64,000 bases of DNA from Candidatus Latescibacterota bacterium (GCA_965204745.1 OZ242010.1:5355264-5419263); one strand, 5' to 3'. Positions 5,937 to 36,700 are shown, counted from the first letter of the stretch. Numbers and translations: made by a program. The notes: generated by a model not told the origin, from the sequence alone.

Positions 5937-5960
5937 GCGATTATCAGACTGGAGAAAGGC

Positions 5961-6593: not shown

Positions 6594-7534
6594 TGGGAAA
6601 GTCGCTAAGTACTCGCGTTATGACGAAAAATACAGTGTCTAAAATGGATAAATCACAGACAAAAATCATGCTCGACACGGCCGCAAAATTGGCGCGGGAC
6701 ACCTGCGCGGATATGATTTTGCTCGTGACCCACTCCGGCATCCCCCCCGCGGCTGTGCAGAAACTCAATACCATCTGTCGGGTCTTGGTCGCGACGCGAG
6801 ACGAACATTTCCCGTGCGACATCGAAAAGACCGGGGCGCAACGGTTGATTTGCGATTACGATGGCGCGCACTTCGAGCGCGTGCGGCAATGCGTCATCAA
6901 GGGCATGGACGAGGGGCATATTCGGCGCGGCGCGCGCTTGGTATGCCTGAGTCGCCTGCTGACCCCACACGGGGTTGACGCGCTGATGGTGCTGGATACG
7001 GATGTCGGGTTTGACGGGTACGACCCGGCCGATATTGCGGAACTATCTGGCGATTTGCCGGTGCGCGTGGTCAAAACCGTGCTCAATATCGCGCTCGACA
7101 TCGGGCGGGATGGGCGCGAAGGCGAACCGGTCGGCACGTTTTTCGTCATCGGGGATTCCGAGCGGGTGTTGCGCCATTCGCGGTCTATGACCTTTGATCC
7201 GTTTCGGGGATATTCCGACGAGGAAAAGGATATTTGCAATCCGGATATTCACGAAGGCGTCAAAGAAGTCGCGCTGATGGATGGGGCATTTGTCGTTCGG
7301 GACGATGGGGTTATCCTGTCGGGCGGGCGGTATATTTCCGCCAATGTGCAGGGCCTCGTTTTGCCCAAGGGCCTGGGCGCGCGCCATGTGGCTGCGGCAT
7401 CCATCACCAAGACCACCCATGCCATTGCCGTGGCCGTTTCCCAATCCACGGGGACGGTTCGCGCATTTAAGCGGGGCCAGATCGTTTTGCAACTCAATTC
7501 GGACCATCGGCACATCAGGCAAGATCGGCGATAA
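6593..7534 (+). CDS. Diadenylate cyclase (DAC/DisA_N) domain protein with a soluble ~150-aa N-terminal domain
   Basis: C-terminal half carries VGTFFVIGD, LMDGAFVVRDDG (DGA motif) and GLGARHVAAASIT (RH motif). No TM segments and no HhH domain. The ATG overlaps the kptA stop (TAATG). Confidence 0.75.
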   Translation: MGKSLSTRVMTKNTVSKMDKSQTKIMLDTAAKLARDTCADMILLVTHSGIPPAAVQKLNTICRVLVATRDEHFPCDIEKTGAQRLICDYDGAHFERVRQCVIKGMDEGHIRRGARLVCLSRLLTPHGVDALMVLDTDVGFDGYDPADIAELSGDLPVRVVKTVLNIALDIGRDGREGEPVGTFFVIGDSERVLRHSRSMTFDPFRGYSDEEKDICNPDIHEGVKEVALMDGAFVVRDDGVILSGGRYISANVQGLVLPKGLGARHVAAASITKTTHAIAVAVSQSTGTVRAFKRGQIVLQLNSDHRHIRQDRR

Positions 7535-7541
7535 AAGAGAA

Positions 7542-8810
7542 ATGTTCGGAAGACGCTGGATCGCGCCCCTGTCGACCGGGGCGGTTATGGCGGGCAGTTT
7601 TGTTGCGATGCTGGCATGGGGCGGGCGAGTGCCGGTTTTTTTTGTGCTCTTTGGCCTGGCGTCTGTGGCCTATTTGATTGCGGTTTGGCATTGCGACCGC
7701 ATGCCCTTGCCGGTGATCGCGGTCGCCGGCATCGCGTTTCGGGTGATTATGCTCTTTGCCACACCCGCGCTGTCCGATGATGTTTATCGCTATGCGTGGG
7801 ATGGGCGCGTGCAGTGGGCCGGCATCAATCCGTATTGGTTTGCACCGGCCGCGGCCGAGTTGGCGCATTTGCGAGACGCGCGGATTTATCCCCATATCAA
7901 TCACCCGGAACTGCCGACCATCTATCCGCCCGGCGCGCAAGTGGCGTTCTGGTTGGGATATGGCATGTCGGGGGGTATCGCGGGCATCAAGGCATTGCTC
8001 GCGGGCGCGGATTTGCTCGCGGGCTGGCTGTTGGTGCGGTTGCTCGGGCACTTCAATCAGCGAGCGCAATGGGTTTTGATCTATCTGTGGCATCCGCTGG
8101 TGGTGGTGGAGATCGCGGGAAACGGGCATCTCGAAGCCCTGGGCATCGCGGCGGTGTTGGGCGCGTTGTATTGCTTTTTTAAGGGCAGGGACTACATCGC
8201 ACTCGGCGCGCTGGGCGGGGGCGTTTTGGTGAAGTTCCTCCCCGTCGTTTTGTTGCCCGCGTTCGCGCGTTGGAAAGGATGGCGACCGCTAAATTGGCCC
8301 GCACTGCTCATCGCGTTAGGCGTGGTGTCGCTGGGTTATTTGCCGTTTGCCTGGGCGGGTGCGCCGGTTTTTGGCAGCTTGGGCGCGTACGCACAACACT
8401 GGTCGTTTAATAGCGCGGCATTCGATGTTCTCGTGTTGCTTTGCGGCGACGGGCAACTCGCGCGGGGCATCATCGCCGCGCTTTTTGTCGGGATCGCGCT
8501 GTGGCTCTCGTGGCGGCGCGTGTCCGCATTGCGCCATGCGTATCTGACTGCTGCGGCCTTTGTCCTGCTGACGCCTACGCTGCATGCGTGGTATGTGGTG
8601 TGGCTGATTCCATTTCTCGCGTTCTATCGGCATCCCGCGTTGATCGCGTTTTCCCTGCTGGTGGTTTTGTCCTACGATGTTCTGATTCCATATAAAGCCA
8701 CTGGCGTGTGGGAAGAAGCCCCGTGGGTGCAATGGGCCGAATTTGGCGGCGCAGCACTGGTGGGCGTCACGGCGTCGTTCTGCAAGCGAAAAGAGAAACG
8801 GAAATCTTGA
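7542..8810 (+). CDS. Polytopic membrane protein, DUF2029/GT87-like (GT-C type) glycosyl/mannosyltransferase
   Basis: Many hydrophobic segments. First loop DDVYRYAWDGRVQWAGINPY...TIYPPGAQ resembles the acidic loop of GT-C mannosyltransferases. The function call is tentative. Confidence 0.55.
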   Translation: MFGRRWIAPLSTGAVMAGSFVAMLAWGGRVPVFFVLFGLASVAYLIAVWHCDRMPLPVIAVAGIAFRVIMLFATPALSDDVYRYAWDGRVQWAGINPYWFAPAAAELAHLRDARIYPHINHPELPTIYPPGAQVAFWLGYGMSGGIAGIKALLAGADLLAGWLLVRLLGHFNQRAQWVLIYLWHPLVVVEIAGNGHLEALGIAAVLGALYCFFKGRDYIALGALGGGVLVKFLPVVLLPAFARWKGWRPLNWPALLIALGVVSLGYLPFAWAGAPVFGSLGAYAQHWSFNSAAFDVLVLLCGDGQLARGIIAALFVGIALWLSWRRVSALRHAYLTAAAFVLLTPTLHAWYVVWLIPFLAFYRHPALIAFSLLVVLSYDVLIPYKATGVWEEAPWVQWAEFGGAALVGVTASFCKRKEKRKS

Positions 8811-16775: not shown

Positions 16776-18962
16776 ATGAACAATACGTCTGTCTCACGCG
16801 ATCAGGTCTTGGCCGTTGCGCGCCAGCAATCCAAGCACCCGCTCAAAATGCGCGAACTCGCCCGCGCCCTTTCCGTACCCGATAGAAATTATCCAGCATT
16901 TCGCAACCTGATTCGCCGCATGGTGCGCGACGGTAGCCTCGTCAAGTTGCGCCACAACAAGTACGGCCTGCCATCCGCCCACGGCCACGCGGTTGGTCGC
17001 ATCGCCATCCAAATTAGTGGCTACGGCTTGGTCGCGCCCGAAGACGGAGGCGAGGAGATTTTTGTCGCGGCGAAACACCTCGGGCAGGCCCTACACGGCG
17101 ACCGCGTTGTGGTGCGCGTCACCTGCGGGGCATGGGGCGACAATCGGCCAGAAGGCGAGTTGATTCGCATCGTTGCACGCGCCGAGCAGCGCGTGGTGGG
17201 CACATATTTCGATAAGAGGTTCGGCTTTTTTGTCTCTGACGATCCGCGTATCCAAATCGACATTCCCATCCCCAAGGACCCGCCCCACAGAGCCGAGCAC
17301 GGCCAAAAGGTCGTGGTTCATCTCACATTTCCCGCTGTTCACGCGCCTCCCCAAGCGCGGATTGTCGAAGTCTTGGGCGATTCCGACGATCCGAACATCG
17401 AGACCCTGGTCTTCATCAAAAAACGCGGCCTTCCCCTCGAGTTTCCCGGTCCTGTACTCGATGCGGCAGACGCGGCTCCGCAACACATCCCACCCGCTGA
17501 AATTGAACGTCGCCTCGACTTGCGCGCCCTGACCTGTTTTACTATCGACCCGGCAGACGCACGCGATCACGACGACGCCGTGTCCCTGCAAGTCTTGGAC
17601 GACGGGAACTACTGCTTGGGCATTCACATCGCCGACGTCAGCCACTACGTGCCCGAGGGTTCGCCCCTCGACCGCGAGGCGATAGAGCGCGGTTGTAGCG
17701 TTTATCTGCCCGACCGCGTGATCCCAATGTTGCCGGAAAAACTCTCTGCGAATATCTGTTCCCTGCGCCCGTGCGAAGACCGCCTGACCATGAGCATCCT
17801 GGCGCGCATCGCGCCCGAAGGCGAGTTGATCGACGCGCAGATTGCAGAAACGATAATCCGCAGTCGCGGCCGCCTGTCTTATGAAGACGTGCAAGATGTG
17901 CTCGACCAGCGCGACGGCGACAACCCCGCCCAGGCCTTTGCCGATATCCTCAAGCGCATGGACGCGCTGCGAAGTGGGCTAATGGCGAACCGCAGAAACA
18001 GAGGCGCGGTTGATTTTGAAATTCCCGAACCGCAGATCGTCCTCGATGACGAGGGCCAGCCCATCCATATTCATCCGCGTGCCCGACTGAACAGCCACCG
18101 CCTCATCGAAGAATTTATGCTCTTGGGCAATGAAATCGTCGCCCGATACATGACCGAACGCGGCATGCCCATTCTCTACCGCGTACACGAACCGCCCGAT
18201 AGCGAAAAACTCGCGGCGTTTTTCAGCATGGGCAAAGCCCTGGGCTATCGCCTGTCCAAGCAAGCGCTGACAAGGGGTAAGTCAGCATCCACGCGGCGCG
18301 GCACCATCCAGCAATTTCTCGACGAGTTCAAGGGCAAACCCATCGGCCATATCTTGTGCAACCGCCTGTTGCGCTCGATGAAAAAAGCGGTCTATACACC
18401 CGTCAACCGCGGTCATTTTGGGTTGGCCTGCGATACTTATACGCACTTCACGTCGCCGATTCGCCGCTATCCCGATCTGATCCTCCACCGCGCCCTCCGA
18501 GACGCGCTCAACGACGCGACCACGCCGACCAGCATGGCGCGCCTCGCCCGTCGCCTGCCCGATATTGGCGACTTGACGACCGAGCGCGAAATCGCCGCGC
18601 AAAGGGCCGAGTGGGATGCTGTTCAGTTGATGCAAATTCTCTATCTCGAAAACAAAATAGGCCGGCATTTTGATGCCACTATCGTAGATGTGCGTCCCAT
18701 CGGCTTTTTTGTGCAACTTTGCGATGTGCTCATCGAGGGTTTGGTTCACGTCAAATATCTCGACGACGATTATTATACTTATCGCGAATTGCAAGGTACG
18801 CTCGTTGGCGACTACACCGGGAAGACCTTTCGAATCGGGGATTCGGTTCGCGTGCAACTCGCCCAACTCGACCGCCAACGCCTACGGATCGACTTCCACC
18901 TCTTGTCGCACAGGAAAAATAACAACCCCAAACGCAGTCGGAAAAGACGCGGGAGCAGGTAA
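16776..18962 (+). CDS. rnr: Ribonuclease R
   Basis: N-terminal HTH/cold-shock region, RNB catalytic motif FTIDPADARDHDDAVS, HFGLACDTYTHFTSPIRRYPDL, a C-terminal S1 domain and a basic tail. Confidence 0.95.
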   Translation: MNNTSVSRDQVLAVARQQSKHPLKMRELARALSVPDRNYPAFRNLIRRMVRDGSLVKLRHNKYGLPSAHGHAVGRIAIQISGYGLVAPEDGGEEIFVAAKHLGQALHGDRVVVRVTCGAWGDNRPEGELIRIVARAEQRVVGTYFDKRFGFFVSDDPRIQIDIPIPKDPPHRAEHGQKVVVHLTFPAVHAPPQARIVEVLGDSDDPNIETLVFIKKRGLPLEFPGPVLDAADAAPQHIPPAEIERRLDLRALTCFTIDPADARDHDDAVSLQVLDDGNYCLGIHIADVSHYVPEGSPLDREAIERGCSVYLPDRVIPMLPEKLSANICSLRPCEDRLTMSILARIAPEGELIDAQIAETIIRSRGRLSYEDVQDVLDQRDGDNPAQAFADILKRMDALRSGLMANRRNRGAVDFEIPEPQIVLDDEGQPIHIHPRARLNSHRLIEEFMLLGNEIVARYMTERGMPILYRVHEPPDSEKLAAFFSMGKALGYRLSKQALTRGKSASTRRGTIQQFLDEFKGKPIGHILCNRLLRSMKKAVYTPVNRGHFGLACDTYTHFTSPIRRYPDLILHRALRDALNDATTPTSMARLARRLPDIGDLTTEREIAAQRAEWDAVQLMQILYLENKIGRHFDATIVDVRPIGFFVQLCDVLIEGLVHVKYLDDDYYTYRELQGTLVGDYTGKTFRIGDSVRVQLAQLDRQRLRIDFHLLSHRKNNNPKRSRKRRGSR

Positions 18963-19053
18963 TTTTGAACCTTTATCGCGCTCAAACATTAAAGGCCATA
19001 TATTTTTCGGTTGATGTATCAACGGCCCTGCGGTCACTTCAAAGGAGGAAGTC

Positions 19054-19584
19054 ATGATAACGAGACTTTTGGTCATCTTCGTTTTGATGTTGTTTTCAGG
19101 TGTTGCTTTTGGTGCTTCACCTAATCCGAGTGTTGAAGAAAGATTGGCGATACTCGAGACAAAATTTGATGCGTTGAGCAAACAGATCGAAGCCAATCAT
19201 CAATCCACACTCAAGTTGATTGAAGTCAGTAATGAAGCAACGAACAAGCGGATCGATGCCAGCAATGAAGCAACGAACAAGCGGATTGATGCGTTGAGCA
19301 AACAGATCGAAGCCAATCATCAATTCATACTCAAGTTGATTGAAGTCACCAATGAAGCAACGAACAAGCGGATTGATGCCAGCAATGAAGCAACGAACAA
19401 GCGGATTGATACCTTAAATAATTGGGGGATTGCGCTATTCGCGGGTGTCTTGGCGTGGACTGGGGTTTTCATAACCCATGCGTTGGGGTTTTGGGGCGTT
19501 TCTAAACGCGACAACGCTGTGACAACGCCAACAGACGCCGATAGGCCAGAAGCGAGCCCAGTGATACAATCCGCTGATGCATGA
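19054..19584 (+). CDS. Tandem paralog 1: signal peptide + coiled-coil (NEATNKRIDAS 11-mers) + C-terminal TM protein, unknown function
   Basis: AAGGAGG Shine-Dalgarno 6 nt upstream. MITRLLVIFVLMLFSGVAFG|A signal peptide. Two 40-aa units ALSKQIEANHQ.(T/I)LKLIEV.NEATNKRIDASNEATNKRID. TM segment WGIALFAGVLAWTGVFITHALGFWGV. Confidence 0.8.
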   Translation: MITRLLVIFVLMLFSGVAFGASPNPSVEERLAILETKFDALSKQIEANHQSTLKLIEVSNEATNKRIDASNEATNKRIDALSKQIEANHQFILKLIEVTNEATNKRIDASNEATNKRIDTLNNWGIALFAGVLAWTGVFITHALGFWGVSKRDNAVTTPTDADRPEASPVIQSADA

Positions 19585-19665
19585 TGGGTCGGTTGTCCTA
19601 TTTGGTCGCGTGAACCGATAAAACGCGCCTACAACGGCCCTGCGGTCACTTCAAAGGAGGAAGTC

Positions 19666-20196
19666 ATGACAACGAGACTTTTGGTCATCTTCGTTTTGGT
19701 ATTGTTTTCAGGTGTTGCATTTGGTGCTTCACCTAATCCGAGTGTTGAAGAAAGATTGGCGATACTCGAGACCAAATTTGATGCGTTGAGCAAACAGATC
19801 GAAGCCAATCATCAATCCACACTCAAGTTGATAGAAGTCACCAATGAAGCAACGAACAAGCGGATTGATGCCAGCAATGAAGCAACGAATAAGCGGATTG
19901 ATGCCAGCAATGAAGCAACGAACAAGCGAATTGATGCCTTGAGCAAACAGATTGAAGCCAATCATCAATCCATACTCAAGTTGATTGAAGTCACCAATGA
20001 AGCAACGAACAAGCGGATTGATACCTTGAATAATTGGGGGATTGCGCTATTCGCGGGTGTCTTGGCGTGGACTGGGGTTTTCATAACCCATGCGTTGGGG
20101 TTTTGGGGCGTTTCTAAACGCGATAATACTGTGACAGCGACAACAGACGTCAATAGGCCAGAAGCGACCCCAGTGATACAATCCGCTGATGCATGA
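19666..20196 (+). CDS. Tandem paralog 2 (same family; 3+1 copies of the 11-mer)
   Basis: Same Shine-Dalgarno, leader, coiled coil and TM as paralog 1. Start is offset 612 nt. Confidence 0.8.
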   Translation: MTTRLLVIFVLVLFSGVAFGASPNPSVEERLAILETKFDALSKQIEANHQSTLKLIEVTNEATNKRIDASNEATNKRIDASNEATNKRIDALSKQIEANHQSILKLIEVTNEATNKRIDTLNNWGIALFAGVLAWTGVFITHALGFWGVSKRDNTVTATTDVNRPEATPVIQSADA

Positions 20197-20279
20197 TGGG
20201 TCGGTTGTCCTATTTGGTCGTGTGAACACCGATAAAACGCGCTTACAATGGTCCTGCGGTCACTTCAAAGGAGGAAGTC

Positions 20280-20777
20280 ATGACAACGAGACTTTTGGTC
20301 GTATTCGTTTTGATGTTGTTTTCAGGTGTTGCATTTGGTGCTTCACCTAATCCGAGTGTTGAAGAAAGATTGGCGATACTCGAGACCAAATTTGATGCGT
20401 TGAGCAAGCAAATTGAGGCCAATCGTCAGGCCACACTCAAGTTGATTGAAGTCACCAATGAAGCAACGAACAAGCGGATTGATGCCAGCAATGAAGCAAC
20501 GAACAAGCGAATTGATGCCTTGAGCAAGCAGATTGAAGCCAATCATCAATCCATACTCAAGTTGATTGAAGTCACCAATGAAGCAACGAACAAGCGGATT
20601 GATACCTTGAATAATTGGGGGATTGCGCTATTCGCGGGTGTCTTGGCGTGGACTGGGGTTTTCATAACCCATGCGTTGGGGTTTTGGGGCGTTTCTAAAC
20701 GCGACAACGCTGTGACAGCGACAACAGACGCCGATAGGCCAGAAGCGACCCCAGTGATGCAATCCGCCGATGCATGA
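20280..20777 (+). CDS. Tandem paralog 3 (2+1 copies of the 11-mer)
   Basis: Same architecture. Start is offset 614 nt from paralog 2. Confidence 0.8.
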   Translation: MTTRLLVVFVLMLFSGVAFGASPNPSVEERLAILETKFDALSKQIEANRQATLKLIEVTNEATNKRIDASNEATNKRIDALSKQIEANHQSILKLIEVTNEATNKRIDTLNNWGIALFAGVLAWTGVFITHALGFWGVSKRDNAVTATTDADRPEATPVMQSADA

Positions 20778-20842
20778 TGGTCGTGTGAACACCGCTAAAA
20801 CGCGCTTACAATGGCCCTGCGGTCACTTCAAAGGAGGAAGTC

Positions 20843-21352
20843 ATGACAACGAGACTTTTGGTCGTATTCGTTTTGGTATTGTTTTCAGGTGTTGCTTTTG
20901 GTGCTTCACCTAATCCGAGTGTTGAAGAAAGATTGGCGATACTTGAAACGACAATGAAACTTCAATTTGATGCCTTGAGCAAACAGATTGAAGCCAATCG
21001 CCAGTCCACACTCAAGTTGATAGAAGTCAGCAATGAAGCAACGAACAAGCGGATCGATGCCAGCAATGAAGCAACGAACAAGCGGATTGATGCCTTGAGC
21101 AAGCAGATCGAAGCGAATCATCAATCCACACTCAAGTTGATTGAAGTCACCAATGAAGCAACGAACAAGCGGATCGATACCTTGAATAATTGGGGGATTG
21201 CGCTATTCGCGGGTGTCTTGGCGTGGACTGGGGTTTTCATAACCCATGCGTTGGGGTTTTGGGGCGTTTCTAAACGCGACAACGCTGTGACAACGCCAAC
21301 AGACGCCGATAGGCCAGAAGCGACCCCAGTGATGCAATCCGCCGATGCATGA
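20843..21352 (+). CDS. Tandem paralog 4 (2+1 copies; 4-aa insertion near ILET(TMKL)QFDAL)
   Basis: Same architecture. Start is offset 563 nt from paralog 3. Confidence 0.8.
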   Translation: MTTRLLVVFVLVLFSGVAFGASPNPSVEERLAILETTMKLQFDALSKQIEANRQSTLKLIEVSNEATNKRIDASNEATNKRIDALSKQIEANHQSTLKLIEVTNEATNKRIDTLNNWGIALFAGVLAWTGVFITHALGFWGVSKRDNAVTTPTDADRPEATPVMQSADA

Positions 21353-21362
21353 GGGTTACGCC

Positions 21363-22619
21363 ATGTTTTTGCGATCAACCAAAATTCTCGTCGCACTCTT
21401 GATCTTCGCACTCCCATCCACATGGGCTGCTAACACCAAAGATCTCCTCGACGCAGATCGCTTGGGCAAGCACCTCAAAGCCACGGGCGAACAAAAAGCA
21501 CACATCGCCACGCATATCGCCGCGCTTCGCAACATCGTAACCGCGTACCAAACCGAACGCGCCCGCCGAACCAACGAAGCCCTGTTGTGGCAGGGGCACA
21601 TCCCCAAGCTCAAAGACCTGAAAAGCCTCCGCAACAGTGCCAATGACAGTGCTAGTGCCGTGTTTGACGTGCTCAAGACCGCGCTCGACAACGAGCAAAT
21701 TGAACGCTTGGACAAACTCATCGGCAAAGGCGATGTCTTTGCCATTCCCATCGCCTATCATCCCTATCATCACGTCCAGAACTCCCCGCTTTTTCCCGAG
21801 TTTTCGGGCGAGAAAACCGCGTACAAACTCACCTTGCCCTCGGCCCCCGATCCGGCCAACACATGGACGTATGCCCAGTTGCTCAAAATTTGGACCGTGC
21901 GGAACTTCATGCCCGCGGTGCGCCCCATCGACGACTTGCAACACGCGCCGAGCATTGCCGCGCATCCGGATCTGCAAACCCGCGAAGTATCGGTTTCGGA
22001 CCGGTATCGCCTCGTGCGCTCTCCGTTGCTCATTTCAGCCACCCTGTACGCGCCGGATTTGATGCGTTCGGAATTTGACATGTTGCAAACCCATCACAGC
22101 GCAGACGGCATTTCCACCCGGTCCTGGGACGACTACGCCGCGCAAAACCGCCTCGACAGCGATATTCAAATCCGCTTAAAATTCAACACCATTTACGACA
22201 AAGCGTACCTCGACCTCAACCGCTGGACCATCTATCTGCAAGACAGCGAAGAAATCGGGTATGAGCCCAACAAAATTGAGGAACGGGCATTTTATCCGCT
22301 CGAGGCACTCAAAGTTTCCGTGCCGGGCAGGGAAATCGAAGTCACCGATGTCTTTGGCACGTACATCTCGCCCACTTATACGCCCGGGGAAAAAGCGCGC
22401 TATTTCGCAGAACCGCCCACGCAGATGACCTACTTGGGCAACGAGAAATTGCTCGTCCTGTATTTCCCGGCGCGAACCGTCATGAAAACCCCGGTGGTTT
22501 CACACGAGACCGAGTACCTCAAACTCATCGTCCAGTCCCACGAAACCGATTTCGGGCGCAGTGAACTCGTGTGGGCGTTCAAAAAACCCAAATCAAAAAC
22601 GCGCCCGCCCAAGGATTAA
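21363..22619 (+). CDS. Secreted hypothetical protein
   Basis: GAGGG Shine-Dalgarno, signal peptide MFLRSTKILVALLIFALPSTWA|A. 418-aa open frame with host-like composition. No family recognised. Confidence 0.6.
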   Translation: MFLRSTKILVALLIFALPSTWAANTKDLLDADRLGKHLKATGEQKAHIATHIAALRNIVTAYQTERARRTNEALLWQGHIPKLKDLKSLRNSANDSASAVFDVLKTALDNEQIERLDKLIGKGDVFAIPIAYHPYHHVQNSPLFPEFSGEKTAYKLTLPSAPDPANTWTYAQLLKIWTVRNFMPAVRPIDDLQHAPSIAAHPDLQTREVSVSDRYRLVRSPLLISATLYAPDLMRSEFDMLQTHHSADGISTRSWDDYAAQNRLDSDIQIRLKFNTIYDKAYLDLNRWTIYLQDSEEIGYEPNKIEERAFYPLEALKVSVPGREIEVTDVFGTYISPTYTPGEKARYFAEPPTQMTYLGNEKLLVLYFPARTVMKTPVVSHETEYLKLIVQSHETDFGRSELVWAFKKPKSKTRPPKD

Positions 22620-22623
22620 CACC

Positions 22624-24531
22624 ATGCGTTACCCATTCATGCTTTTGCTCGCCTTGCTCCTCGCGGGTTGCGTGAGCGCGCAACAACCGCAAATTGCCCT
22701 GCGTGCGGTCCCCTCGCCCAAAACATCGCCCGATCCCCACGCGGTCACGCACTTCTTGCGCGCGCGATTCGCCGAGTCCACAGGGCAGCGCGATGTGGCG
22801 ATTCGGGAATTGAAAGCCGCCGTGCACTACGACTCGACCTCGGCTACGCTCTACGGCGCGCTCGCGCGCAATCTCAACGCGGTTCGGCGATTTCGGGACG
22901 CGCTCGACCCCGCTCGCCGCGCAGTTCGCCTGGATCCGAAAAACGTGCAAAACCGCTGGCTGTACTATCGCGCCCTCAGCCGCGGCGTGCGAGACACCGC
23001 CGCGGCTATCGGCCAGTTAAACGCCATAGCACGCCTCGCGCCCGCAGACCTCACGGCCCATCATCACCTGCTCCAAATTTACAGCGCGCGCGGGCAACGC
23101 GCCCAGGCCATCGCCGTGCTCGACAGCATCGTCGCCAGCGCGGATCGCGATGCGCGCACAAAGCTCTTTGTTGCCGAGAACTACCACCGCCAGCACGCCT
23201 TTGACAAAGCAGCACACCTCTACGCCGAACTCCTCACAACCGAACCGCTCAACGCGGACCTCCATTTTAAGCTGGGCATCACGAATCTCGCTCGGGCAGA
23301 TACCCTGACCGCCGAGCAGAGTTTCCGACACATTCTCACGGGGCAGGATTACGCCGTCACCAAACAAACCGTTCCGGTTTGGGTGCAACTGGTACACATC
23401 TACAGCCGCGAAAACCACCTCAATCGCCTCCTCGCGGAACCCCCAAGAGATGCGCGTTTGATCAATCGGCTAGGCCAAGTGCTCATCCGCATGACCAGAG
23501 GGCGGCACGAGCACGCCGAGAAAATGCGCTTTGCCAGCATGGCCGAGCGCGTCTTGGATCACCAGTTGCAAAGCGACCCCGAAAACCAGACCTTGCTGGG
23601 CGCGAAAGCCCGCTTTCTCCTCGATGCCAACCGAACCGCAGACGCGCGCAAAACCTATCGCCTCGCCAACTTGCAGGGGGAAAAAACCGAATACCACTTG
23701 GGCATCGCCCATTCGTATCGCCTCGAGGAAAACTGGGCGAGCGCGCAACAAATTTTGGAAAAACTCTATCGGGACGCACAGCCCAAAGACGAGCACTACG
23801 ATCAGATCGCGTTTGACCTGGCCCGCGTTCATCTGCGCCAAAACCAAATCGCCCCCGCACGCGCTGTCTATCGGCAAGCCCTTGACGCCAAGCCCGAACA
23901 CGCGGGTTTTCGCTACGAGCTCGCACGCACCCACCTCTTCGACCGCAACTGGGAAAACGCCATTCCCCTGCTCGAGCCCCTGGTCGACGACACCGAAGAC
24001 AACCCCGCATTTCTCGAGGCCGTGCTTTTTGATCTGGCGCGCAGTCTGGAAAGATCTGGGCACTACGAGCGCGCGGTTGAAATTTTCCAACGCCTCTTGG
24101 TGCTCAACGAGGAGCACGCAGAGGCCAGCAACTACTTGGGCTACATGCTCGCCGAGCGCGGTGAACGCCTCGCCGAAGCCAAAAAACTGATTGAACGCGC
24201 CCTGAAAATCGACCCGGAAAACGGCGCGTACCTCGACAGCCTCGGCTGGGTGTATTACCAACTCGAGCAGTACGGCGATGCCGCGCGCTGGCTCGACCGC
24301 GCCCTCGCCGTCGAAGAAGAAGCCCTGCGCCGCGCCGATCCCAATTCCCCCACAGTGGCGGGACTGCGCGAAAACCTCGCGGTCATTTATGAACACGCGG
24401 GCGACGCGGCAAAAAAATTAGGCGACCTCGCCCGTGCAAGCCGCCACTATGAACGCGCCTTGGAATTTGATCCCGACAACCAAACCCTGCGGGAAAAATT
24501 CAAAAACCTCGCCAAAGACGGTTCACCATGA
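22624..24531 (+). CDS. TPR-repeat lipoprotein
   Basis: Lipobox LLAGC. Many TPR-like repeats, e.g. AEASNYLGYMLAERGERLAEAKKLIERALKIDPENGAYLDSLGWVYYQLEQYGDA. Confidence 0.8.
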   Translation: MRYPFMLLLALLLAGCVSAQQPQIALRAVPSPKTSPDPHAVTHFLRARFAESTGQRDVAIRELKAAVHYDSTSATLYGALARNLNAVRRFRDALDPARRAVRLDPKNVQNRWLYYRALSRGVRDTAAAIGQLNAIARLAPADLTAHHHLLQIYSARGQRAQAIAVLDSIVASADRDARTKLFVAENYHRQHAFDKAAHLYAELLTTEPLNADLHFKLGITNLARADTLTAEQSFRHILTGQDYAVTKQTVPVWVQLVHIYSRENHLNRLLAEPPRDARLINRLGQVLIRMTRGRHEHAEKMRFASMAERVLDHQLQSDPENQTLLGAKARFLLDANRTADARKTYRLANLQGEKTEYHLGIAHSYRLEENWASAQQILEKLYRDAQPKDEHYDQIAFDLARVHLRQNQIAPARAVYRQALDAKPEHAGFRYELARTHLFDRNWENAIPLLEPLVDDTEDNPAFLEAVLFDLARSLERSGHYERAVEIFQRLLVLNEEHAEASNYLGYMLAERGERLAEAKKLIERALKIDPENGAYLDSLGWVYYQLEQYGDAARWLDRALAVEEEALRRADPNSPTVAGLRENLAVIYEHAGDAAKKLGDLARASRHYERALEFDPDNQTLREKFKNLAKDGSP

Positions 24532-25355
24532 ATTTGATCACCACCATGAACGACGCCCTTTGCTGCTCTCCTTTGGGATCGCGGCAAAGGGCTTTTTTGT
24601 ATTGCGCGGTCTTGTTCGCACTCGGCGGCTGCATAACCCATCGCCCCGCGTTGCCCACCCTGCCGCCAGTCGCGTCTGCAACCGAATATCTGCGCCTCGT
24701 CGCAGCGCGCTACGACAGCTTGCGCGATCACGAAGTCCGCGCCACCGTCGATCTCACCATCGACGGGGTGCGAGAGCGCAGGGCACGCGCCCTTGTGCGC
24801 CACCGCCTGCCTTCCGATTTCAAGCTAGTGGTCGGCGGCTTCGGATACGTGGTCATGGCCGCCCGCGCCCAGGCCGATACGCTCTACGTTCACTTGCCTC
24901 GGCAGAATCATTACCTCGTCGGCCAGCCCGAAGCCGTGCTCCACGCGCTCACCGGCGTCGATCTGTCGCATTACGCGGTTGACCGCGCCATTCTGGGTCT
25001 GCCCAATTTTTCGCCTTTAGACATTGCCCGGGCCACGCGCTTTGACCCCGGGCGGGAACACATCTTCCTCGAATTTCACGCCCCCCGCTATTTGCACCGC
25101 CTTTGGATAGAAGCCCGCACCGGTCTTCTGCGCGAGGAAAAGGTCTATGACGTCGATGGACGCCTCGTATCCGCCCGCCGCCTGTCTGATTACCGCATGG
25201 AAAACGGCTTTGCCCTGCCGCGACACATCGAAATCCAGCAAGGCCGAGATGTCATTCTCATCCAAGTCGAATCGCGCGCCATCAACGCTGGCCTCTCCGA
25301 CAAAGACTTCGCCCTCCCCATACCCAAAGACGCCACCCGCCATGAGATACGTTAG
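24528..25355 (+). CDS. Lipoprotein, LolB/DUF4292-like (tentative)
   Basis: The ATG overlaps the TPR gene stop (ATGA). Lipobox ALGGC. Size and beta-rich sequence are as in LolB/DUF4292 lipoproteins, which often follow TPR genes. Weak call. Confidence 0.45.
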   Translation: MNLITTMNDALCCSPLGSRQRAFLYCAVLFALGGCITHRPALPTLPPVASATEYLRLVAARYDSLRDHEVRATVDLTIDGVRERRARALVRHRLPSDFKLVVGGFGYVVMAARAQADTLYVHLPRQNHYLVGQPEAVLHALTGVDLSHYAVDRAILGLPNFSPLDIARATRFDPGREHIFLEFHAPRYLHRLWIEARTGLLREEKVYDVDGRLVSARRLSDYRMENGFALPRHIEIQQGRDVILIQVESRAINAGLSDKDFALPIPKDATRHEIR

Positions 25356-30571: not shown

Positions 30572-30760
30572 ATGATTACCGCCATTTTCAGCCGCTGTTT
30601 GAACCTCATTTGGTCCTATGTTTCCACCGTGAAAACTGACGTTCATATCGCCCATTCTCGTCTTGGTGTGTGCTTCTATTTTATTGCGAAACAGTCCGTT
30701 AGGCTGATCAGTACAGCCCCCCCCCCCCCCCCCCCCCCCTCGAGAAGAGAGTCAAAATGA
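30572..30760 (+). CDS. Upstream leader ORF (62 aa) ending ...STAPPPPPPPSRRESK; stop overlaps the giant gene ATG
   Basis: AAGGAGG (30559-30565) lies 6 nt before ATG 30572. The frame reads through the C23 tract as Ala-Pro7. TGA 30758-30760 overlaps ATG 30757-30759. Coding status is unproven. Confidence 0.4.
   Translation: MITAIFSRCLNLIWSYVSTVKTDVHIAHSRLGVCFYFIAKQSVRLISTAPPPPPPPSRRESK
30717..30739 (+). repeat. Homopolymeric C23 tract
   Basis: 23 consecutive C, ending 17 nt upstream of the giant ORF start. Consistent with the ORF-track translation (A + 7 P). Confidence 0.9.
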
Positions 30761-33700
30761 CATCCCGCTACGCTCATTTGTTAGCTATGGTCGCGCTGGT
30801 CGTGCTGATGGCATCGGGGCCGGCTTTTGCCCAAACCGACTACGACACGGACAACGACAACCTGATTGACGTCACCTCCTTGGCGCAACTCAATGCCATT
30901 CGCTGGGATCTCAATGGCGATGGTGCCATAGACGCAAGTGCCTCGACCAGCGATACGACCGCCTACAACGCCGCCTTTCCCAACGCCATGTCGGGCATGG
31001 GTTGCGCCGCTACCTGCACCGGCTACGAACTGATGAACAACCTCAACTTTGACGAGAACAGCGACAACGAAATCACCTCAGCAGACGCCACCTACTGGAA
31101 CAATGGCGCAGGCTGGGCGCCCATCGGCAACAGCGAGACGAAATACACCGGCAACTTCCACGGCAACGACAATACCATCTCCAACCTGTTTATCGACCGC
31201 TCTGCCGCCAACGACATCGGGCTGTTCGGCTTTGCCGAGGGCGGCACGATTCGCAATTTGAGTCTGGTGAACGCCGATGTGACCGGCTCTAGTTATACCG
31301 CAGTCCTTGTTGGCCAAGGCACCAGGCTCCAGCTCATGCACATCCGCGTTACCGGACAGGTCAGCGGGCTCAGCAATGGCGGTGGCTTGGTGGGCAGTCT
31401 GACGCACGGTAGCTCGACCATTACCGCCTGCGGTGCCGAGGTGGACGTCACTGGGCGCGGTAGCAGAACCTACTCTGATATAAGCTTCGGCGGTCTGGTA
31501 GGTGGCAACTCCGGCACGATAACCGCTAGCTATGCCACCGGCGCAGTCAGCAACGACAATGTTTACGTCGGCGGTCTGGTGGGCTTTCACGGCTCAAGTG
31601 CTGTCATACGCGCCAGCTATGCCACCGGCGCCGTTAGAGGCCAAACCTTATTCGGCGGCCTGGTCGGTATTGCTTTTGGGGGCGCGATAACCGCTAGCTA
31701 TGCCACCGGCGCCGTCAAGGGCACCGGCGCCGTCTCTTATATCGGCGGTCTGGTGGGCTTCAACAGTTCTACATCAATTACCTACAGCTACTACGATAGT
31801 ACCACCACCGGACAAAAAGACACCGGACGCGGCGCCCCTCAGACCACCGCCGGTCTCCAAAACCCCACGGATTATACCGGCATCTACGCCAACTGGAACC
31901 TGAACCTGGACGGGCAAACGGGCAACGACAATCCGTGGAGCTTTGGCACGACGAGTCAGTATCCGGTCTTGAAGTATGCCGGCATGGACACCGCCGCGCA
32001 ATTTAACGCGCAACGGGTGGGCAAGCCGACGGGTGTGATGGTGGCGGGGAAGACGGACACGCTGACCGTGACTTGGGGGTTAGTACGCAATGCAACCGGG
32101 TATAAGGTGCGGTGGAAATCAGGGATTCTGACTTACCCCACCTCTGATCTGGCGGCCGCCACGCGCGGGCAAGCCACTATCGGTAGCGTGCTCACCACGA
32201 CCTACGATATTTCTGGGCTGACCACAGGGACGACCTACACGGTTCAAGTCATCGCCACCCGCCTCAATGCAACCGACAGTGACCCTTCGGACGCAGTCAT
32301 GGTGACGCCGGCGACCACCAAGCCCACCAATGTGCGCGTGACGCCTGCGCCGGTCCAACTCATTGTGGATTGGACCAAGGCAACCGGCGCGACGGGGTAC
32401 AAGGTGCAGTGGAAGTCCGGTGGACAGACCTACAACACCTCTTCTCGCCAGGCGATGGTCTCTGGGGTGAACACCACGACCTACACGATAGAGGGCCTGA
32501 CTTTTGGCACGACCTACACTGTGCGCGTCACTGCTACCCTGGCAGGTGGGACCGATAGTGATCCCTCGGACGAGGTCGTGGGCACGCCCCTTAGAGGGCT
32601 GGACATGCCGACGGGTGTGATCGTGATGCCCAAAGTGGACACCTTGGACGTGCGCTGGACTGCGGTGAGCACTGCGACGGGGTACAAGGTGCAGTGGAAA
32701 CTCCACAGGCGGACCTACGATGTTTCGCGTCAGGTGGTCGTCACGGGGACGCGCTACGCGATCCCCAACTTGATCGCCGGGGCGTCCTATCTCGTGCGTA
32801 TCATTGCCACCAAGGCCGGTCTGCCCGAGAGTGCTCCCTCAACCGAGGTGCCCGGCGTTCCCTTGCTACGTAGCCCAATGGGTGTGATGGTGACAGCGGA
32901 TATGGACACGCTGACCGTGACTTGGAACGCCGTGGACAATGCAACCGGGTATAAGGTGCAGTGGAAATCAGGGAATCTGACTTATCCCACCGCCGATGTG
33001 GAGACCACCGCCTTGCGCGGGCAAGCTACAATCGCAGGCGGGAACACCACGACCCACAAAATTTCTGGGTTGACCGCAGGGACGACCTACACGATTCGCG
33101 TCATCGCCACGCACACCAATGTAGCCGATAGCGCTCCCTCTGTCGAGGTGCCCGGCGTTCCTTTGCTGGGCAAGCCGACTGTGATGGTGGCGGCGAAGAT
33201 GGACACGCTGACCGTGACTTGGAACGCCGTGGACGATGCAACCGGGTATAAGGTGCAGTGGAAATCAGGGAATCTGACTTACCCCACCGCCGATCTGGAT
33301 TCCGCCACGCGCGGGCAAGCCACCATCGCAGGCGGGAACACCACGACCCACAAAATCTCCGGTGTGACCGTCGGGACGCTCTACGCGGTTCGCGTCATCG
33401 CCACGAGCACCAATACCAATATCGCCGACAGCACGCCTTCGGAGGAAGTCATGGTGATGCCGGCGACAAACAGGCCCACCAATGTGCGCGTGACGCCGGG
33501 GACGACCCAACTCCTTGTGCGTTGGACCGAGGCAACCGGCGCGACGGGATACAAGGTGCAGTGGAAGTCCGGGCAACAGGCATACGACCCCTCTTCTCGA
33601 CAGGCGCAGGTCTCTGGGGTGAGCACCACGACCTACACGATAGAGAACCTGACGGTTAGCACGACCTACACGGTGCGCGTCATCGCTATCCTGTCAGGTG

Positions 33701-36700
33701 GGGTCGATAGCACGCCCTCGGACGAGGTCATGGGCACGCCCCCGGGGATCGATTACGACAGGGATGGCGATGGCCTCATCGACATTACGACGCTGGCACA
33801 ACTCAATGCCATCCGCTACGACATGGATGGCAACGGCGACGCTACCCACGCCGTTTATGCCGCCGCTTTTCCCAACCGCGATACCACCAGTAGCATCCGG
33901 ATGGGTTGCCCTTCCGGGACCTGCACCGGCTACGAACTGCTCAACAACCTCGACTTTTCAGGAGGTCAATGGACCAGCGGCGCGGGTTGGCTCCCTATTG
34001 GAGTGTGGGGGCGTAATTCGTGGGAGACTTACACTGGCACGTTCAAGGGCAATAACAAGACCATCTCCAACCTGTACATCAACCGTGGTGACGATATTGA
34101 TGTTGGGCTGTTTGGTCATGTCAGCGGCAACATTTCCGGTCTGGGGCTGAAAAATGTCGATGTAAGAGGCACCGACAATGTGGGTGGGTTGGTCGGTGAA
34201 CAGGAGGGTGGTCGCATACTGAGTTGTTTTGTCACGGGTCGCGTTGAGGGTTGGAGTACCGCCATTAGAACTACGGGCGGTTTGGTGGGTCGTTCAGGAG
34301 CTAACACCGTCATCGCGGCCAGCTATGCCAATGCTGAGGTCATCATGGATCTGGATGAAACTAATGCTTATGCCGGCGGTTTGGTGGGCTTCAAATCAAA
34401 TAGTTCTGAGATAATAGCGTCCTACGCCATCGGGCCGGTGACTGGTAGAAATGCAGGCGGTCTGATTGGGCATGGTGGTGCTGCTACTTCTTTTAGTTTG
34501 GCTAGCTATTCCACAGGGACAGTCACTGGGGGAGGCTACATAGGCGGATTTGTGGGGAGGTTAGGGGCGGGATCGTATAGCTATTGGGATACGGAAAGTA
34601 GCGATCTCTTATCCAGTGCTGGCGGCACGGGCCAGACCACCAGCGCGTTGCAGTCGGAAACGGACTACGACGGCATCTACGCCAGTTGGGATGTGGATGT
34701 CGATGGCAGGGTTGGCAATGACGATCCGTGGACCTTTGGCGCGGCGGATCAGTATCCGGTGTTGAAATATGCCGGCATGGATACCACCGCACAATTTGCA
34801 ATGCAACCGCCGGGCATTCCGACAAGTGTGACCGTGACGGTGCAAGCGGCCACTTTGGATGTGCGTTGGCGTGCGGCGAGTTATGCGACGGGGTACAAGG
34901 TGCAGTGGAAATCCGGCATGCAAAGCTACGACGCCTCGCGTGAGGGGATCGTCACGGGGACGCGCTACAATATCCCTAACTTGGCGGTTGGGACGACCTA
35001 CACAGTGCGTGTCATTGCCACCAAGACCGGTGCCCGCGATGGCCGGCCCTCAGCAGAGCAGACCGGCGTTATCTCCGTGCTGGGCAGTCCGACTGTGATG
35101 GTGGCGGCGAAGTTGGACACGTTGACCGTGACTTGGAATGTGGTGACCAGCGCAACCGGCTACAAGGTGCAGTGGAAATCGGGGTCAGAGACTTATCCCA
35201 ATGCCGATCTGGCGTCCGCCTTGCGCGGGCAAGCCACCATCGTAGGCGGGAGCACCACGACCTACAAAATCCCCAATGTGACCAGAGGGACAGCCTACAC
35301 GGTGCGCGTCATCGCCACGCGTACCAATGTAGCCGACAGTGCCCCCTCGGAGGAAGTAACCGGCGTTCCCGGGCTGGAACGCCCGACGGGTGTGGATGTG
35401 AGTGCGACGGTGGACACGCTGACCGTGACTTGGAATGTGGTGGACGATGCAACCGGGTATAAGGTGCAGTGGAAATCGGGGTCAGAGACTTATCCCAATG
35501 CCGATCTGGTGTCCGCCTTGCGCGGGCAAGCCACCCTCGTAGGCGGGAGCACCACGACCTACAAAATCCCCAATGTGACCACAGGGACGACCTACACGGT
35601 TCGCGTCATCGCCACGCGTACCAATGTAGCCGACAGTGCCCCCTCGGAGGAAGTAACCGTGCTGGTTAGCCCGACGGGTGTGATGGTGCGTGCGACGGTG
35701 GACACGCTGACCGTGACTTGGAATGCGGTGGACGATGCCACCGGGTATAAGGTGCAGTGGAAATCCGGGTCAGAGACTTATCCCAACGCCGATTCTCAGG
35801 CCGCCACGCACGGGCAAGCTACCATCTCTGACGGGGGCACCACGACCTACGATATTTCTGGGCTGACCGCAGGGACGACCTACACGGTTCGGATCATCGC
35901 CACGAGTACCAATAGCAATGTAGCCGACAGTGCCCCCTCGGCAGAGCAGACCGGCGTTCCCGTGCTGGGTAGCCCGGCTGTGATGGTGGCGGCGAAGGCG
36001 GACACGCTGACCGTGATGTGGAATGCGGTGGACGATGCCACCGGGTATAAGGTGCAGTGGAAGTCCGGGTCAGAGACTTATCCCAACGCCGATCTGGCGT
36101 TGGCCACGCACGGGCAAGCCACAATCGCTGGCGGGGGCACCACGACCTACAAAATTTCTGGGCTGACCGCAGGGACGACCTACACGATTCGCGTCATCGC
36201 CACGCGTACCAATGTAGCCGACAGTGCCCCCTCGGCAGAGCAGACCGGCGTTCCCGTGCTGGGTAGCCCGGCTGTGATGGTGCGTGCGAAGTTGGACACA
36301 CTGACCGTGACTTGGAATGTGGTGACCAACGCAACCGGGTATAAGGTGCAGTGGAAATCCGGGTCAGAGATTTATCCCACCTCCGATGAGCAGTCCGCCA
36401 CGCGCGGGCAAGCCACTATCGTAGGCGGGCGCACCACGACCTACAAAATTTCTGGGCTGACCAGAGGGACGACCTACACGGTTCGCGTCATCGCCACGCG
36501 TACCAATGTAGCCGACAGTGCCCCCTCGGCAGAGCAGACCGGCGTTCCCGTGCTGGGTAGCCCGGCTGTGATGGTGGCGGCGAAGGTGGACACGCTGACC
36601 GTGACTTGGAATGCGGTGGACGATGCCACCGGGTATAAGGTGCAGTGGAAATCCGGGTCAGAGATTTATCCCACTTCCGATGAGCAGTCCGCCACGCGCG

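Follow-up and report, generated by a model that had tools for sequence, protein, structure and literature searches.

A tandem array of four predicted type I coiled-coil membrane proteins in a Candidatus Latescibacterota genome, with a possible role as periplasmic struts or tethers

The Escherichia coli protein YgiM has a signal peptide, a periplasmic part, a coiled coil and a C-terminal membrane anchor, and the spanins, such as the i-spanin Rz and the u-spanin T1 gp11, are rods that span the periplasm, the u-spanin combining a lipoprotein signal with a C-terminal transmembrane (TM) helix. Put6, Put7 and MCUR1 carry a coiled-coil stalk followed by a C-terminal TM helix (PMC7519068), and Lpp is a short coiled-coil rod that sets the width of the periplasm (PMC8824477). 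The Bdr proteins of Borrelia, whose function is undefined (PMC10016077), are encoded on prophage-plasmids and contain central 11-residue [KR]ID repeats (KIDNVEKNLNx) with interspersed 18-residue units, in numbers that vary among many paralogs, and a single C-terminal TM helix through which they are associated with the inner membrane. Here we describe a family of the same general kind, repetitive coiled coil plus membrane anchor, that is set apart within it by a predicted periplasmic orientation, quantised length variation and live array dynamics. It is encoded by a tandem array of four genes (positions 19020 to 21352) in a 64,000-nucleotide stretch of a Candidatus Latescibacterota genome (GCA_965204745.1, OZ242010.1:5355264-5419263), which is referred to below as the window. 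The array is a genuine tandem array of four functional paralogs. The explanation that we favour takes in the anatomy and evolution of the array, the topology of the proteins and their function, and its rough probability of 0.45 is a compromise of our separate figures for these; for the function, our best guess, held at low confidence, is that the proteins form oligomeric periplasmic struts or tethers working with the envelope genes downstream.

The four co-directional open reading frames (ORFs) lie on the + strand at 19054-19584, 19666-20196, 20280-20777 and 20843-21352, and encode proteins of 176, 176, 165 and 169 amino acids (aa). A repeat search of the window recovered them as a four-copy direct repeat with start-to-start spacings of 612, 614 and 563 nt, in agreement with the four unit starts proposed in a first-pass annotation of this DNA. 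Pairwise DNA identity of the units is 94.5-96%, any two of them differing by 22-29 mismatches in addition to indels, and the paralogs are 94-95% identical in protein; both identities are far above chance and bear out the earlier impression of highly similar DNA copies. A 34-nt leader with the Shine-Dalgarno sequence AGGAGG 7 nt 5' of the ATG (19020-19053 on the + strand for unit 1) recurs before each of the four units, as the first-pass annotation had noted, the leaders of units 3 and 4 differing from those of units 1 and 2 by two and one mismatches (CAATGGTCC and CAATGGCCC, respectively). Spacers of 31-49 nt occur between units only; with the leader of the following unit, they occupy 19585-19665 (of which the spacer is 47 nt), 20197-20279 and 20778-20842 (a shortened spacer), all on the + strand. 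No sigma-70-like promoter, intrinsic terminator, significant RNA fold or Rfam family was found within or between the array units, and the spacers therefore look like plain duplicated intergenic DNA. Inside the units, Tandem Repeats Finder detected an inner layer of repetition with a 33-bp period.

The proteins share one anatomy, and our account of it, taken together with the evolutionary mechanism proposed below, is in our judgement highly probable. Each N-terminus consists of MTTR, a 13-residue hydrophobic core and A-F-G|A-S-P-N-P, which are the n-, h- and c-regions of a Sec/SPase I signal peptide, with the Pro-rich start of the mature chain following A-F-G. A repeat helix of 86-97 residues is made of two modules, an 18-residue module A (LSKQIEANHQxxLKLIEV[T/S]; LSKQIEANHQSTLKLIEV[T/S]) and an 11-residue, 33-bp module B (NEATNKRIDA[S]). 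Paralog 1 is arranged as A-B2-A-B2, paralog 2 as A-B3-A-B1, paralog 3 as A-B2-A-B1, and paralog 4 as TMKL after the tip and then A-B2-A-B1, the copies thus differing by whole modules and by the four-residue TMKL insertion. The TM segment (WGIALFAGVLAWTGVFITHALGFWGV) is identical in all four copies and is followed in each by a 27-aa tail rich in T, P and D. In paralog 2, the signal peptide is encoded by 19666-19725, the conserved tip (ASPNPSVEERLAILETK) by 19726-19776, the repeat helix by 19777-20034, the TM helix by 20035-20112 and the predicted cytoplasmic tail by 20113-20193. The first-pass annotation had listed a signal-peptide-like N-terminus, about 90 residues of predicted coiled coil, a C-terminal TM helix and a short T/P/D-rich tail, and each of these was recovered in all four copies.

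Across the family, the tip (NPSVEERLAxLET; NPSVEERLAILET), the juxtamembrane segment (NxQxxLKLIE...TNxRIDTLNxW) and the TM helix are conserved, and the middle varies in length, giving ectodomains of 52-132 residues in series 11 residues apart. Such a pattern is typical of, and would suit, a stalk presenting a tip. The putative cleavage site A[FL]G|[AD] is kept together with TLNxW and the TM helix in 85 of 97 relatives. An AF2 model of copy 2, calculated as a monomer from an alignment of 15 sequences, consists of one unbroken helix over residues 27-148 that takes in everything from the tip to the TM segment; residues 30-100 have a pLDDT above 90, and the tail is disordered. The hydrophobic periodicity peaks at 3.62-3.63 residues, a value reached by none of 500 shuffles, and reflects mixed 11- and 7-residue Ile/Leu spacings, the Ile stripe being flanked by Asn, Thr and Ser. 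This periodicity would fit a nearly straight, polar-core, homo-oligomeric coiled-coil rod, which at 0.15 nm per residue (a helix of about 96 residues) would have a length of approximately 13-15 nm in the window.

From these features we infer that a cleavable signal peptide of the Sec type (AFG|AS) directs each protein out of the cytoplasm and that the mature protein is of type I, with a periplasmic tip and rod, one TM helix in the inner membrane and a short cytoplasmic tail; a periplasmic rod is probable on this evidence. The Lys and Arg directly after the TM helix (SKRD) are in line with a cytoplasmic tail. The term tail-anchored, used in the first-pass annotation, does not strictly apply, since a signal peptide at the N-terminus and a tail of 27 residues beyond the TM helix make these type I single-pass proteins.

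The four copies and the relatives scanned returned nothing above the cut-offs for Pfam, NCBIfam, PHROGs, PADLOC or the PDB, and Foldseek gave no match, in accordance with the earlier statement that no family could be recognised. The matches of the family to XhlA, TIGR04211, DUF16, DUF7310 and IPTL-CTERM are far below cut-offs and cover the coil or the TM helix only, and those in PHROGs and PADLOC are to generic coiled coil. The best NCBIfam match was TIGR04211 (SH3_and_anchor, the YgiM family), with 17.7-22 bits for the window copies and 33.8 bits for the relative P0055 against a cut-off of 65, the alignment being limited to model positions 53-192 (coil plus anchor); YgiM has an SH3 domain, which the window family does not, and has neither 11-mer repeats nor a tandem array. 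Unlike the window proteins, DUF1640 proteins, grouped here with those resembling MCUR1 and CCDC90B, possess a head domain, have no signal peptide of the bacterial type and are oriented towards the matrix or the cytoplasm, and the corresponding CCDC90-like model (PF07798, gathering threshold 33.5 bits) did not match the window copies; weak matches were seen for a tail-anchored neighbour family (16.6 bits) and for the relative P0123 (18.4 bits). The sole sequence match in the PDB, at E=0.006, was 6h9l, a three-chain entry named 'Uncharacterized protein' with ATKEDIEALRK-type 11-mers.

The likeness to Lpp is one of functional analogy only, as Lpp is anchored in the outer membrane and the window proteins, by prediction, in the inner membrane; the window copies gave no Lpp match in Pfam at E<=1. 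They have Phe where related clusters have Cys (LVLF or LMLF against LMSC) and lack a lipobox. Conversely, a lipobox-like Cys occurs in the signal peptides of the 50%-identity cluster of P0045 and P0055 (LMSC/LMLC), and P0093 has a canonical IATGC. Such variants might carry a lipid anchor at the tip end as well as the TM anchor at the opposite end, in the manner of a unimolecular spanin. Among the relatives, the u-spanin layout is confined to P0093 and the P0045/P0055 cluster, and no spanin was present among the PHROGs matches.

The first-pass annotation had seen a loose resemblance to Bdr and XhlA-type proteins, and here the architecture and the repeat arithmetic stood, and membership of either family did not. 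Were the proteins membrane-active in the manner of these two families, coil and TM helix would act on the inner membrane, as a lysis accessory, a holin-like factor, or in remodelling or stress, which we consider quite unlikely. A direct comparison with the Bdr protein BB_RS06190 of Borrelia burgdorferi B31 cp32-3 shows the same arithmetic in a multigene family, with 11-residue [KR]ID repeats, occasional 18-residue units and variable repeat number; in the window family, one to three NEATNKRIDAS 11-mers occur per block between paralogs and strains. This likeness is one of pattern, as BLASTP gave E=0.014 and no significant sequence similarity. The Bdr_N_group1 model (NF040499), which scores a true Bdr at 94.6 bits, did not match a window copy, P0055, the paralog P0085 or the tail-anchored partner family at E<=10. 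Bdr proteins also lack a signal peptide and end 3-6 residues after the TM helix, as opposed to the signal-peptide-like segment and 27 further residues of the window proteins. Bdr membership was ruled out on the missing NF040499 domain, the signal peptide, the tail and the BLASTP result.

For XhlA (PF10779, gathering threshold 34.7 bits), weak matches at E 0.01-0.04 were found in several family members and in the adjacent tail-anchored partner family, with shorter relatives scoring 14.9-16.2 bits, whereas the four window copies had no match at E<=1. The PHROGs model phrog_1193, annotated 'hemolysin', matched P0055 at E=1e-8 over the coil only. Elsewhere, as detailed below, family genes are paired with genes for true tail-anchored coiled-coil proteins and chimeras of both exist, which would favour a membrane-active role. 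Against it, Bdr and XhlA both lack a signal peptide, so that their coils are cytoplasmic, on the opposite side of the membrane from that predicted here, and neither Bdr (PMC10016077) nor XhlA has a defined function. Phage context is likewise absent: phage origin was ruled out, with no relatives on viral contigs in IMG/VR and housekeeping genes as neighbours.

We recovered the corresponding loci of other assemblies by exact-protein look-ups, each of them lying between a gene for RNase R and a gene for a 418-aa protein. Copy number at this syntenic locus is 1, 1, 3, 4, 4, 4 and at least 5 in seven assemblies, the window included, which answers the earlier suggestion to count copies in related genomes. 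A 5.28-Mb closed contig (L007) has three copies (176, 165 and 169 aa) and lacks window copy 2; a second sample yielded one locus with four copies (L009; 174, 158, 165 and 169 aa) and another with at least five (L008), of which one is cut short at 128 aa and another is broken up by a DDE_Tnp_1 transposase gene; and a third sample has four copies (L010; 176, 187, 176 and 165 aa). Two more distantly related Candidatus Latescibacterota chromosomes carry a single copy in the same slot, of 203 aa in OZ251458.1 (L001) and of 126 aa in OY282377.1 (L002). In L008, the truncated copy (5648-6034) ends upstream of its TM segment, and the split copy (6809-8124) is interrupted by an insertion sequence element with a 258-aa transposase on the opposite strand.

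Orthologous copies differ by whole 11-aa modules, window copy 2 having 176 aa and its counterparts in L008 and L010 187 aa. Other substitutions are common to all copies of a strain, with KQLEAN, NDATNKRID and AWIGVF in all four L010 copies against KQIEAN, NEATNKRID and AWTGVF in all copies of the window clade. Tail variants (TTPTDAD against TATTDV[DN], and PVIQ against PVMQ) form a patchwork over copies and strains; window copy 1 has the tail of copy 4, and the first copies of L007 and L008 have the other variant. In a stretch of 31 codons around the TM helix, there are no differences, synonymous ones included, among the four window copies, as opposed to about one variable codon in five elsewhere, and gene conversion has probably kept this tract uniform. 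An element acting at the nucleotide level was also considered here and set aside, conservation of the segment between species being no higher than that of the gene's 5' end. We additionally observed that the TM-coding segment (20035-20112 and its equivalents) is rich in G runs (TGGGGG, CTGGGGTTTTC, TTGGGGTTTTGGGGC) and, by an uncounted impression, uses GGG Gly codons, which would be expected to be rare at a genome GC content at third codon positions (GC3) of approximately 0.7. Module indels, strain-wide substitutions, mosaic tails and invariant TM codons together argue for unequal crossing-over plus gene conversion. Most plausibly, the array arose, and continues to change, by unequal crossing-over of the units and of the internal 33-bp repeats, and gene conversion would reshuffle segments between copies. 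The family had been described as recently amplified or concertedly evolving, and the range of copy number, the mosaic tails and the strain-specific substitutions all agree with this.

All four copies are coding on the + strand and under purifying selection, with dS of 0.12-0.19 and dN/dS of 0.13-0.21 for the six paralog pairs (0.15-0.21 for those that include paralog 1). These values bear on the possibility that the rods take part in conflict, as phage or antagonist targets, as barriers resembling superinfection exclusion, or as proteins otherwise under diversifying pressure. This idea would be compatible with copy and repeat numbers that change rapidly even among near-identical strains, with the expansion of the wider superfamily described below in particular lineages (many paralogs in Ca. 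Magnetomorum HK-1), with the atypical codon usage and with the insertion of the genes between housekeeping genes. Selection is, however, purifying and not diversifying, the tip, juxtamembrane motif and TM helix are nearly invariant, 33-bp tandem repeats are expected to change in number with or without selection, and neither defence genes nor mobile elements flank the array in the window, the PADLOC matches being to generic coiled coil. We regard a conflict role as improbable.

The array genes have a GC content of 45.2-47.5%, against 55-61% in the flanking genes, a difference of about 12 points, and a GC3 of 0.48-0.51, against approximately 0.70. The region is thus AT-richer than its surroundings, as first annotated, although the earlier hand count of 40-45% GC was slightly low. 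Low GC3 (0.45-0.63) is found for family members at every locus and genome examined, in loci with an overall GC of 0.55-0.585 (window 19054-21352; L001 8001-8612; L002 7998-8378; L003 7520-7960; L004 8001-8549; L005 7112-7519), and extends to the signal-peptide, tip and tail codons. The atypical composition is, on the sequences compared, a property of the family and gives no indication of recent horizontal transfer into the window genome.

In an exhaustive HMMER search of 1.84 billion representatives, only six proteins were found at E<1e-10, comprising three full-length 50%-identity clusters and fragments. The full-length relatives come solely from Latescibacterota metagenome-assembled genomes (MAGs) or unclassified metagenome contigs, and some 100 closer relatives are from metagenomes and MAGs; both genomes named by a genome scan are Latescibacterota. 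The same syntenic slot is kept in genomes with merely 60-74% protein identity. The horizontal acquisition that the first-pass annotation had considered possible is contradicted by this distribution, by the shared slot and by the family-wide low GC3.

The window genome carries at least one further paralog, P0085, on the same 5.48-Mb contig. Other genomes have a pair of family genes at a third locus, or tandem sets of family genes between dnaX-ybaB and recR, among which are interspersed the genes of another small family, whose products are true tail-anchored coiled-coil proteins (L003 8505-8789 and 9027-9452; L005 7528-7842 and 8438-8767; L004 7259-7699). Members of this second family have no signal peptide, a TM helix at the extreme C-terminus, the motif RVEETDxRILEQLAFIR and weak XhlA and CCDC90-like matches. 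The gene at L003 9027-9452 is a chimera, with the N-terminus of one family and the C-terminus of the other.

A different topology would arise if the signal sequence were an uncleaved anchor, with both ends in the inner membrane and the chain forming a periplasmic hairpin or a surface-lying helix of the 11-mer amphipathic, LEA- or apolipoprotein-like type. Helices of the 11/3 type that lie on membrane surfaces typically show an 11-residue periodicity too, cleavage was judged by rules alone, and the lipobox-like variants could equally stay in the inner membrane. The h-region, however, has just 13 hydrophobic residues, too short for a stable TM helix, which supports a signal peptide over a TM anchor, and next come a canonical A-x-G site and PNP, a helix breaker. 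The AF2 model breaks the chain at residues 18-26, with low confidence, and contains no hairpin, and with one Ile per 11 residues flanked by Asn, Thr and Ser, the helix face reads as too polar for lipid. The probability of this arrangement is low.

The tail of the profile search (hmmsearch E 2e-7 to 5e-4) consisted of proteins with the same layout, and the window family forms one branch, restricted to Latescibacterota, of a large superfamily of small envelope proteins that has no name. Its members share a signal peptide, a tip ((I/V)xERLAxLE.GQ; RISDREIIESLAELKAGQ), variable 7- and 11-residue repeats, an (N/D)KRxDxL motif and a single TM helix. When the two alignments were compared with hhalign, 114 columns could be matched at a probability of 99.1% and E=9.8e-19, with the signal peptide, the tip, the juxtamembrane segment and the TM helix in collinear order; coiled-coil and TM composition may inflate this score. 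The superfamily has KRFE-type repeats with a Phe core, as opposed to the Ile/Asn/Thr-type 11-mers of the window family, and after the TM helix it has WDR(K/R)T and a conserved cytoplasmic domain of 60-70 aa (...LRSFSLL or ...FPEMRxMMQTAxLL), which is absent from the window family, where SKRDN and the 27-aa tail take its place. More than 3000 clusters were found at E<1e-5 in the superfamily profile search, a count inflated by the repeats, and all are annotated as 'hypothetical'. Members occur in Ca. Magnetomorum HK-1, Desulfamplus, Desulfobacter hydrogenophilus, Ca. Kentrum and Nitrosomonas europaea, examples being MBF0450799.1, ABHF54_11245 of N. europaea and DO021_11580 of D. hydrogenophilus. 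None has been characterised, and the link therefore yields relatives but no function. We also noted precomputed matches to PF27742.1 in superfamily members P0109, P0168, P0175 and others, and in none of the window's own family; that of P0109 was absent from a Pfam scan at E<=0.01. This entry may already catalogue part of the superfamily.

The superfamily bears in turn on whether the C-terminal TM helix is a sorting signal of the PEP-CTERM, IPTL-CTERM or LPXTG-like type, which a dedicated sortase-like enzyme would remove, so freeing the rod or fixing it on the cell surface as a fibril or S-layer stalk. IDTLNNW plus the TM helix matches the IPTL-CTERM model (TIGR04174) weakly, at 14.4-14.5 bits, and a strongly conserved motif stands directly before the TM helix. 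The score is nevertheless under the cut-off of 20.5, the TM helix is followed by 16-43 residues (median 22) with a conserved motif and not by a short basic stub, and the cytoplasmic domain after the TM helix in the superfamily argues for a true membrane span. A sorting signal is very unlikely. Finally, the chance that the array is no biological feature, and is either one gene multiplied during assembly or an AT-rich island of recent transfer, as the highly similar units and the GC difference might suggest, is practically negligible: the copies differ at 22-29 positions each plus indels and are distinct enough at their dS for an assembler to resolve, four further assemblies, drawn from at least three samples, have arrays of 3, 4, 4 and at least 5 copies and exclude the assembly artefact that the first-pass annotation had named as a danger, and the syntenic slot in distant Latescibacterota genomes, the family-wide low GC3 and the restriction of full-length relatives to three clusters stand against an island.

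The neighbouring genes are those on which a functional reading of the array draws. Upstream lies the gene for RNase R (16776-18962, +, 728 aa; OB_RNB, CSD2, RNB and S1 domains in the L007-L010 orthologue), which is the conserved neighbour in all syntenic loci. Downstream, all on the + strand, are genes for a 418-aa secreted protein (21363-22619), which follows the family gene in every syntenic genome, for a 635-aa TPR-repeat lipoprotein with lipobox LLAGC (22624-24531), and for a DUF4292 lipoprotein with lipobox ALGGC (24528-25355; PF14125 at E=3e-9, with weak LolA_like and LolB matches below cut-off). For the first two, the longest-ORF starts at 21345 and 22561 were set aside, and the true starts are probably the ATGs at 21363 (MFLRSTKILVALLIFALPSTWA) and 22624 (MRYPFMLLLALLLAGC, with the lipobox), because homologues are 418 and 635 aa long. 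The order of RNase R, family gene or genes, 418-aa protein, TPR lipoprotein and DUF4292 lipoprotein is the same in L001, L002 and L007-L010. The stop codon of paralog 4 lies 10 nt before the ATG of the 418-aa gene with no terminator between them, and since the array abuts this gene and contains neither promoter-like nor terminator-like sites, a transcript shared with the genes for the 418-aa protein, the TPR lipoprotein and the DUF4292 (LolB-like) lipoprotein is probable. The connection drawn in the first-pass annotation between the array and a co-directional secreted gene followed by two lipoprotein genes is accordingly upheld. The 418-aa protein belongs to a narrow family of 33 clusters, and its AF2 model (mean pLDDT 71) has a helical N-domain and a beta C-domain, for which Foldseek gave no credible match in the PDB (best E=0.011, TM-score 0.1); a literature search on DUF4292 and 6H9L returned nothing useful.

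In L001, RNase R and the family gene are separated by an additional ORF of 143 aa (7469-7900) that contains hydrophobic segments and a repeat of the REGHREGRQEG type; its end resembles part of the inter-unit spacer of the window (GCGCGTGAAC), and it is followed by a near-perfect inverted repeat, read by eye, at 7905-7960 (CAACAGCTAGGGCG...CGCCCTAGCTGTTG). Farther along the window, a single ORF of 5808 aa (30757-48183, +) has at least 20 fibronectin type III domains and GLUG motifs, together with segments resembling Pur_ac_phosph_N and T9SS-associated galactose-binding domains, and probably encodes a giant cell-surface or adhesin-type protein.

Other contexts of the superfamily were also inspected. 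In N. europaea (CP157069.1, L013 3464-9982), the superfamily gene lies between two MacB_PCD/FtsX permease genes, in a locus that also has an ABC ATPase, a DUF1302 gene and a LolA-like (TP_0789-like) gene, and this context possibly links the superfamily to a Lol/MacB-type envelope transporter. Such neighbours were not seen in the three other superfamily contexts examined, which contain Wzy and glycosyltransferases, Poly_export and sulfotransferases, and PBP1.

In the strut or tether reading, the rods would stand on the inner membrane and reach into the periplasm, where the conserved tip at the far end would contact peptidoglycan or an outer-membrane partner, possibly a co-transcribed protein. 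They would serve in envelope organisation as struts or tethers of graded length, at 1.6 nm per 11-residue module. Taken by itself, this function is a tentative proposal, and on balance a rather doubtful one. Several observations weigh against it. Copies can be lost (L007) or disrupted (L008), and each copy is therefore dispensable; no peptidoglycan-binding or outer-membrane-binding domain is recognisable in the family proteins; and the tandem sets between dnaX-ybaB and recR lack envelope neighbours. Rod lengths spread widely within one genome, from approximately 9 nm for P0085 to the length calculated for the array, which argues against a single fixed 'ruler', and superfamily neighbourhoods are heterogeneous, with a loose 'envelope' theme only. 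The 418-aa protein has no Pfam family, and a functional lead through this neighbour failed. In addition, the cleavage of the signal peptide was judged by rules and not by a predictor; the Foldseek check of copy 2, which the first-pass annotation had proposed, gave no PDB match at E<=10 with a model of the monomer alone; and the anomalous GC3, for which expression-linked codon bias and recombinational spread within the phylum are candidate causes, has no place in the proposal.

A broader proposal is that the superfamily is an unrecognised class of envelope struts, a kind of 'inverse Lpp', that sets or senses inter-membrane distance for envelope machines. Homo-oligomeric rods of the inner membrane would dock by their tips to the outer membrane or peptidoglycan, or in lipobox variants be lipid-anchored there; each 11-residue module gained or lost would adjust their length by a step of 1.6 nm, a tandem array would furnish rods of several lengths, and the machines served might include the co-transcribed LolB-like/TPR lipoprotein system. 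We hold this to be a long shot.

To our knowledge, Lpp is absent from most phyla. The family bears on how diderms outside Proteobacteria set and maintain the spacing and connection of their two membranes, and is a suitable candidate, with predicted exported rods that are anchored in the inner membrane and vary in length by 11-residue steps, a probable operon with lipoprotein-sorting-like genes and thousands of uncharacterised architectural relatives. It is testable, since relatives are found in culturable bacteria (N. europaea and D. hydrogenophilus). If it were merely a repetitive 'hypothetical' family, its annotation as a type I periplasmic coiled coil, neither tail-anchored nor horizontally acquired, would still be useful. 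Whatever the function, the locus also illustrates neatly, in nature, how unequal crossing-over and gene conversion go on reshaping a tandem array of bacterial genes, with copy number (1 to at least 5) and module number differing even among near-identical strains.

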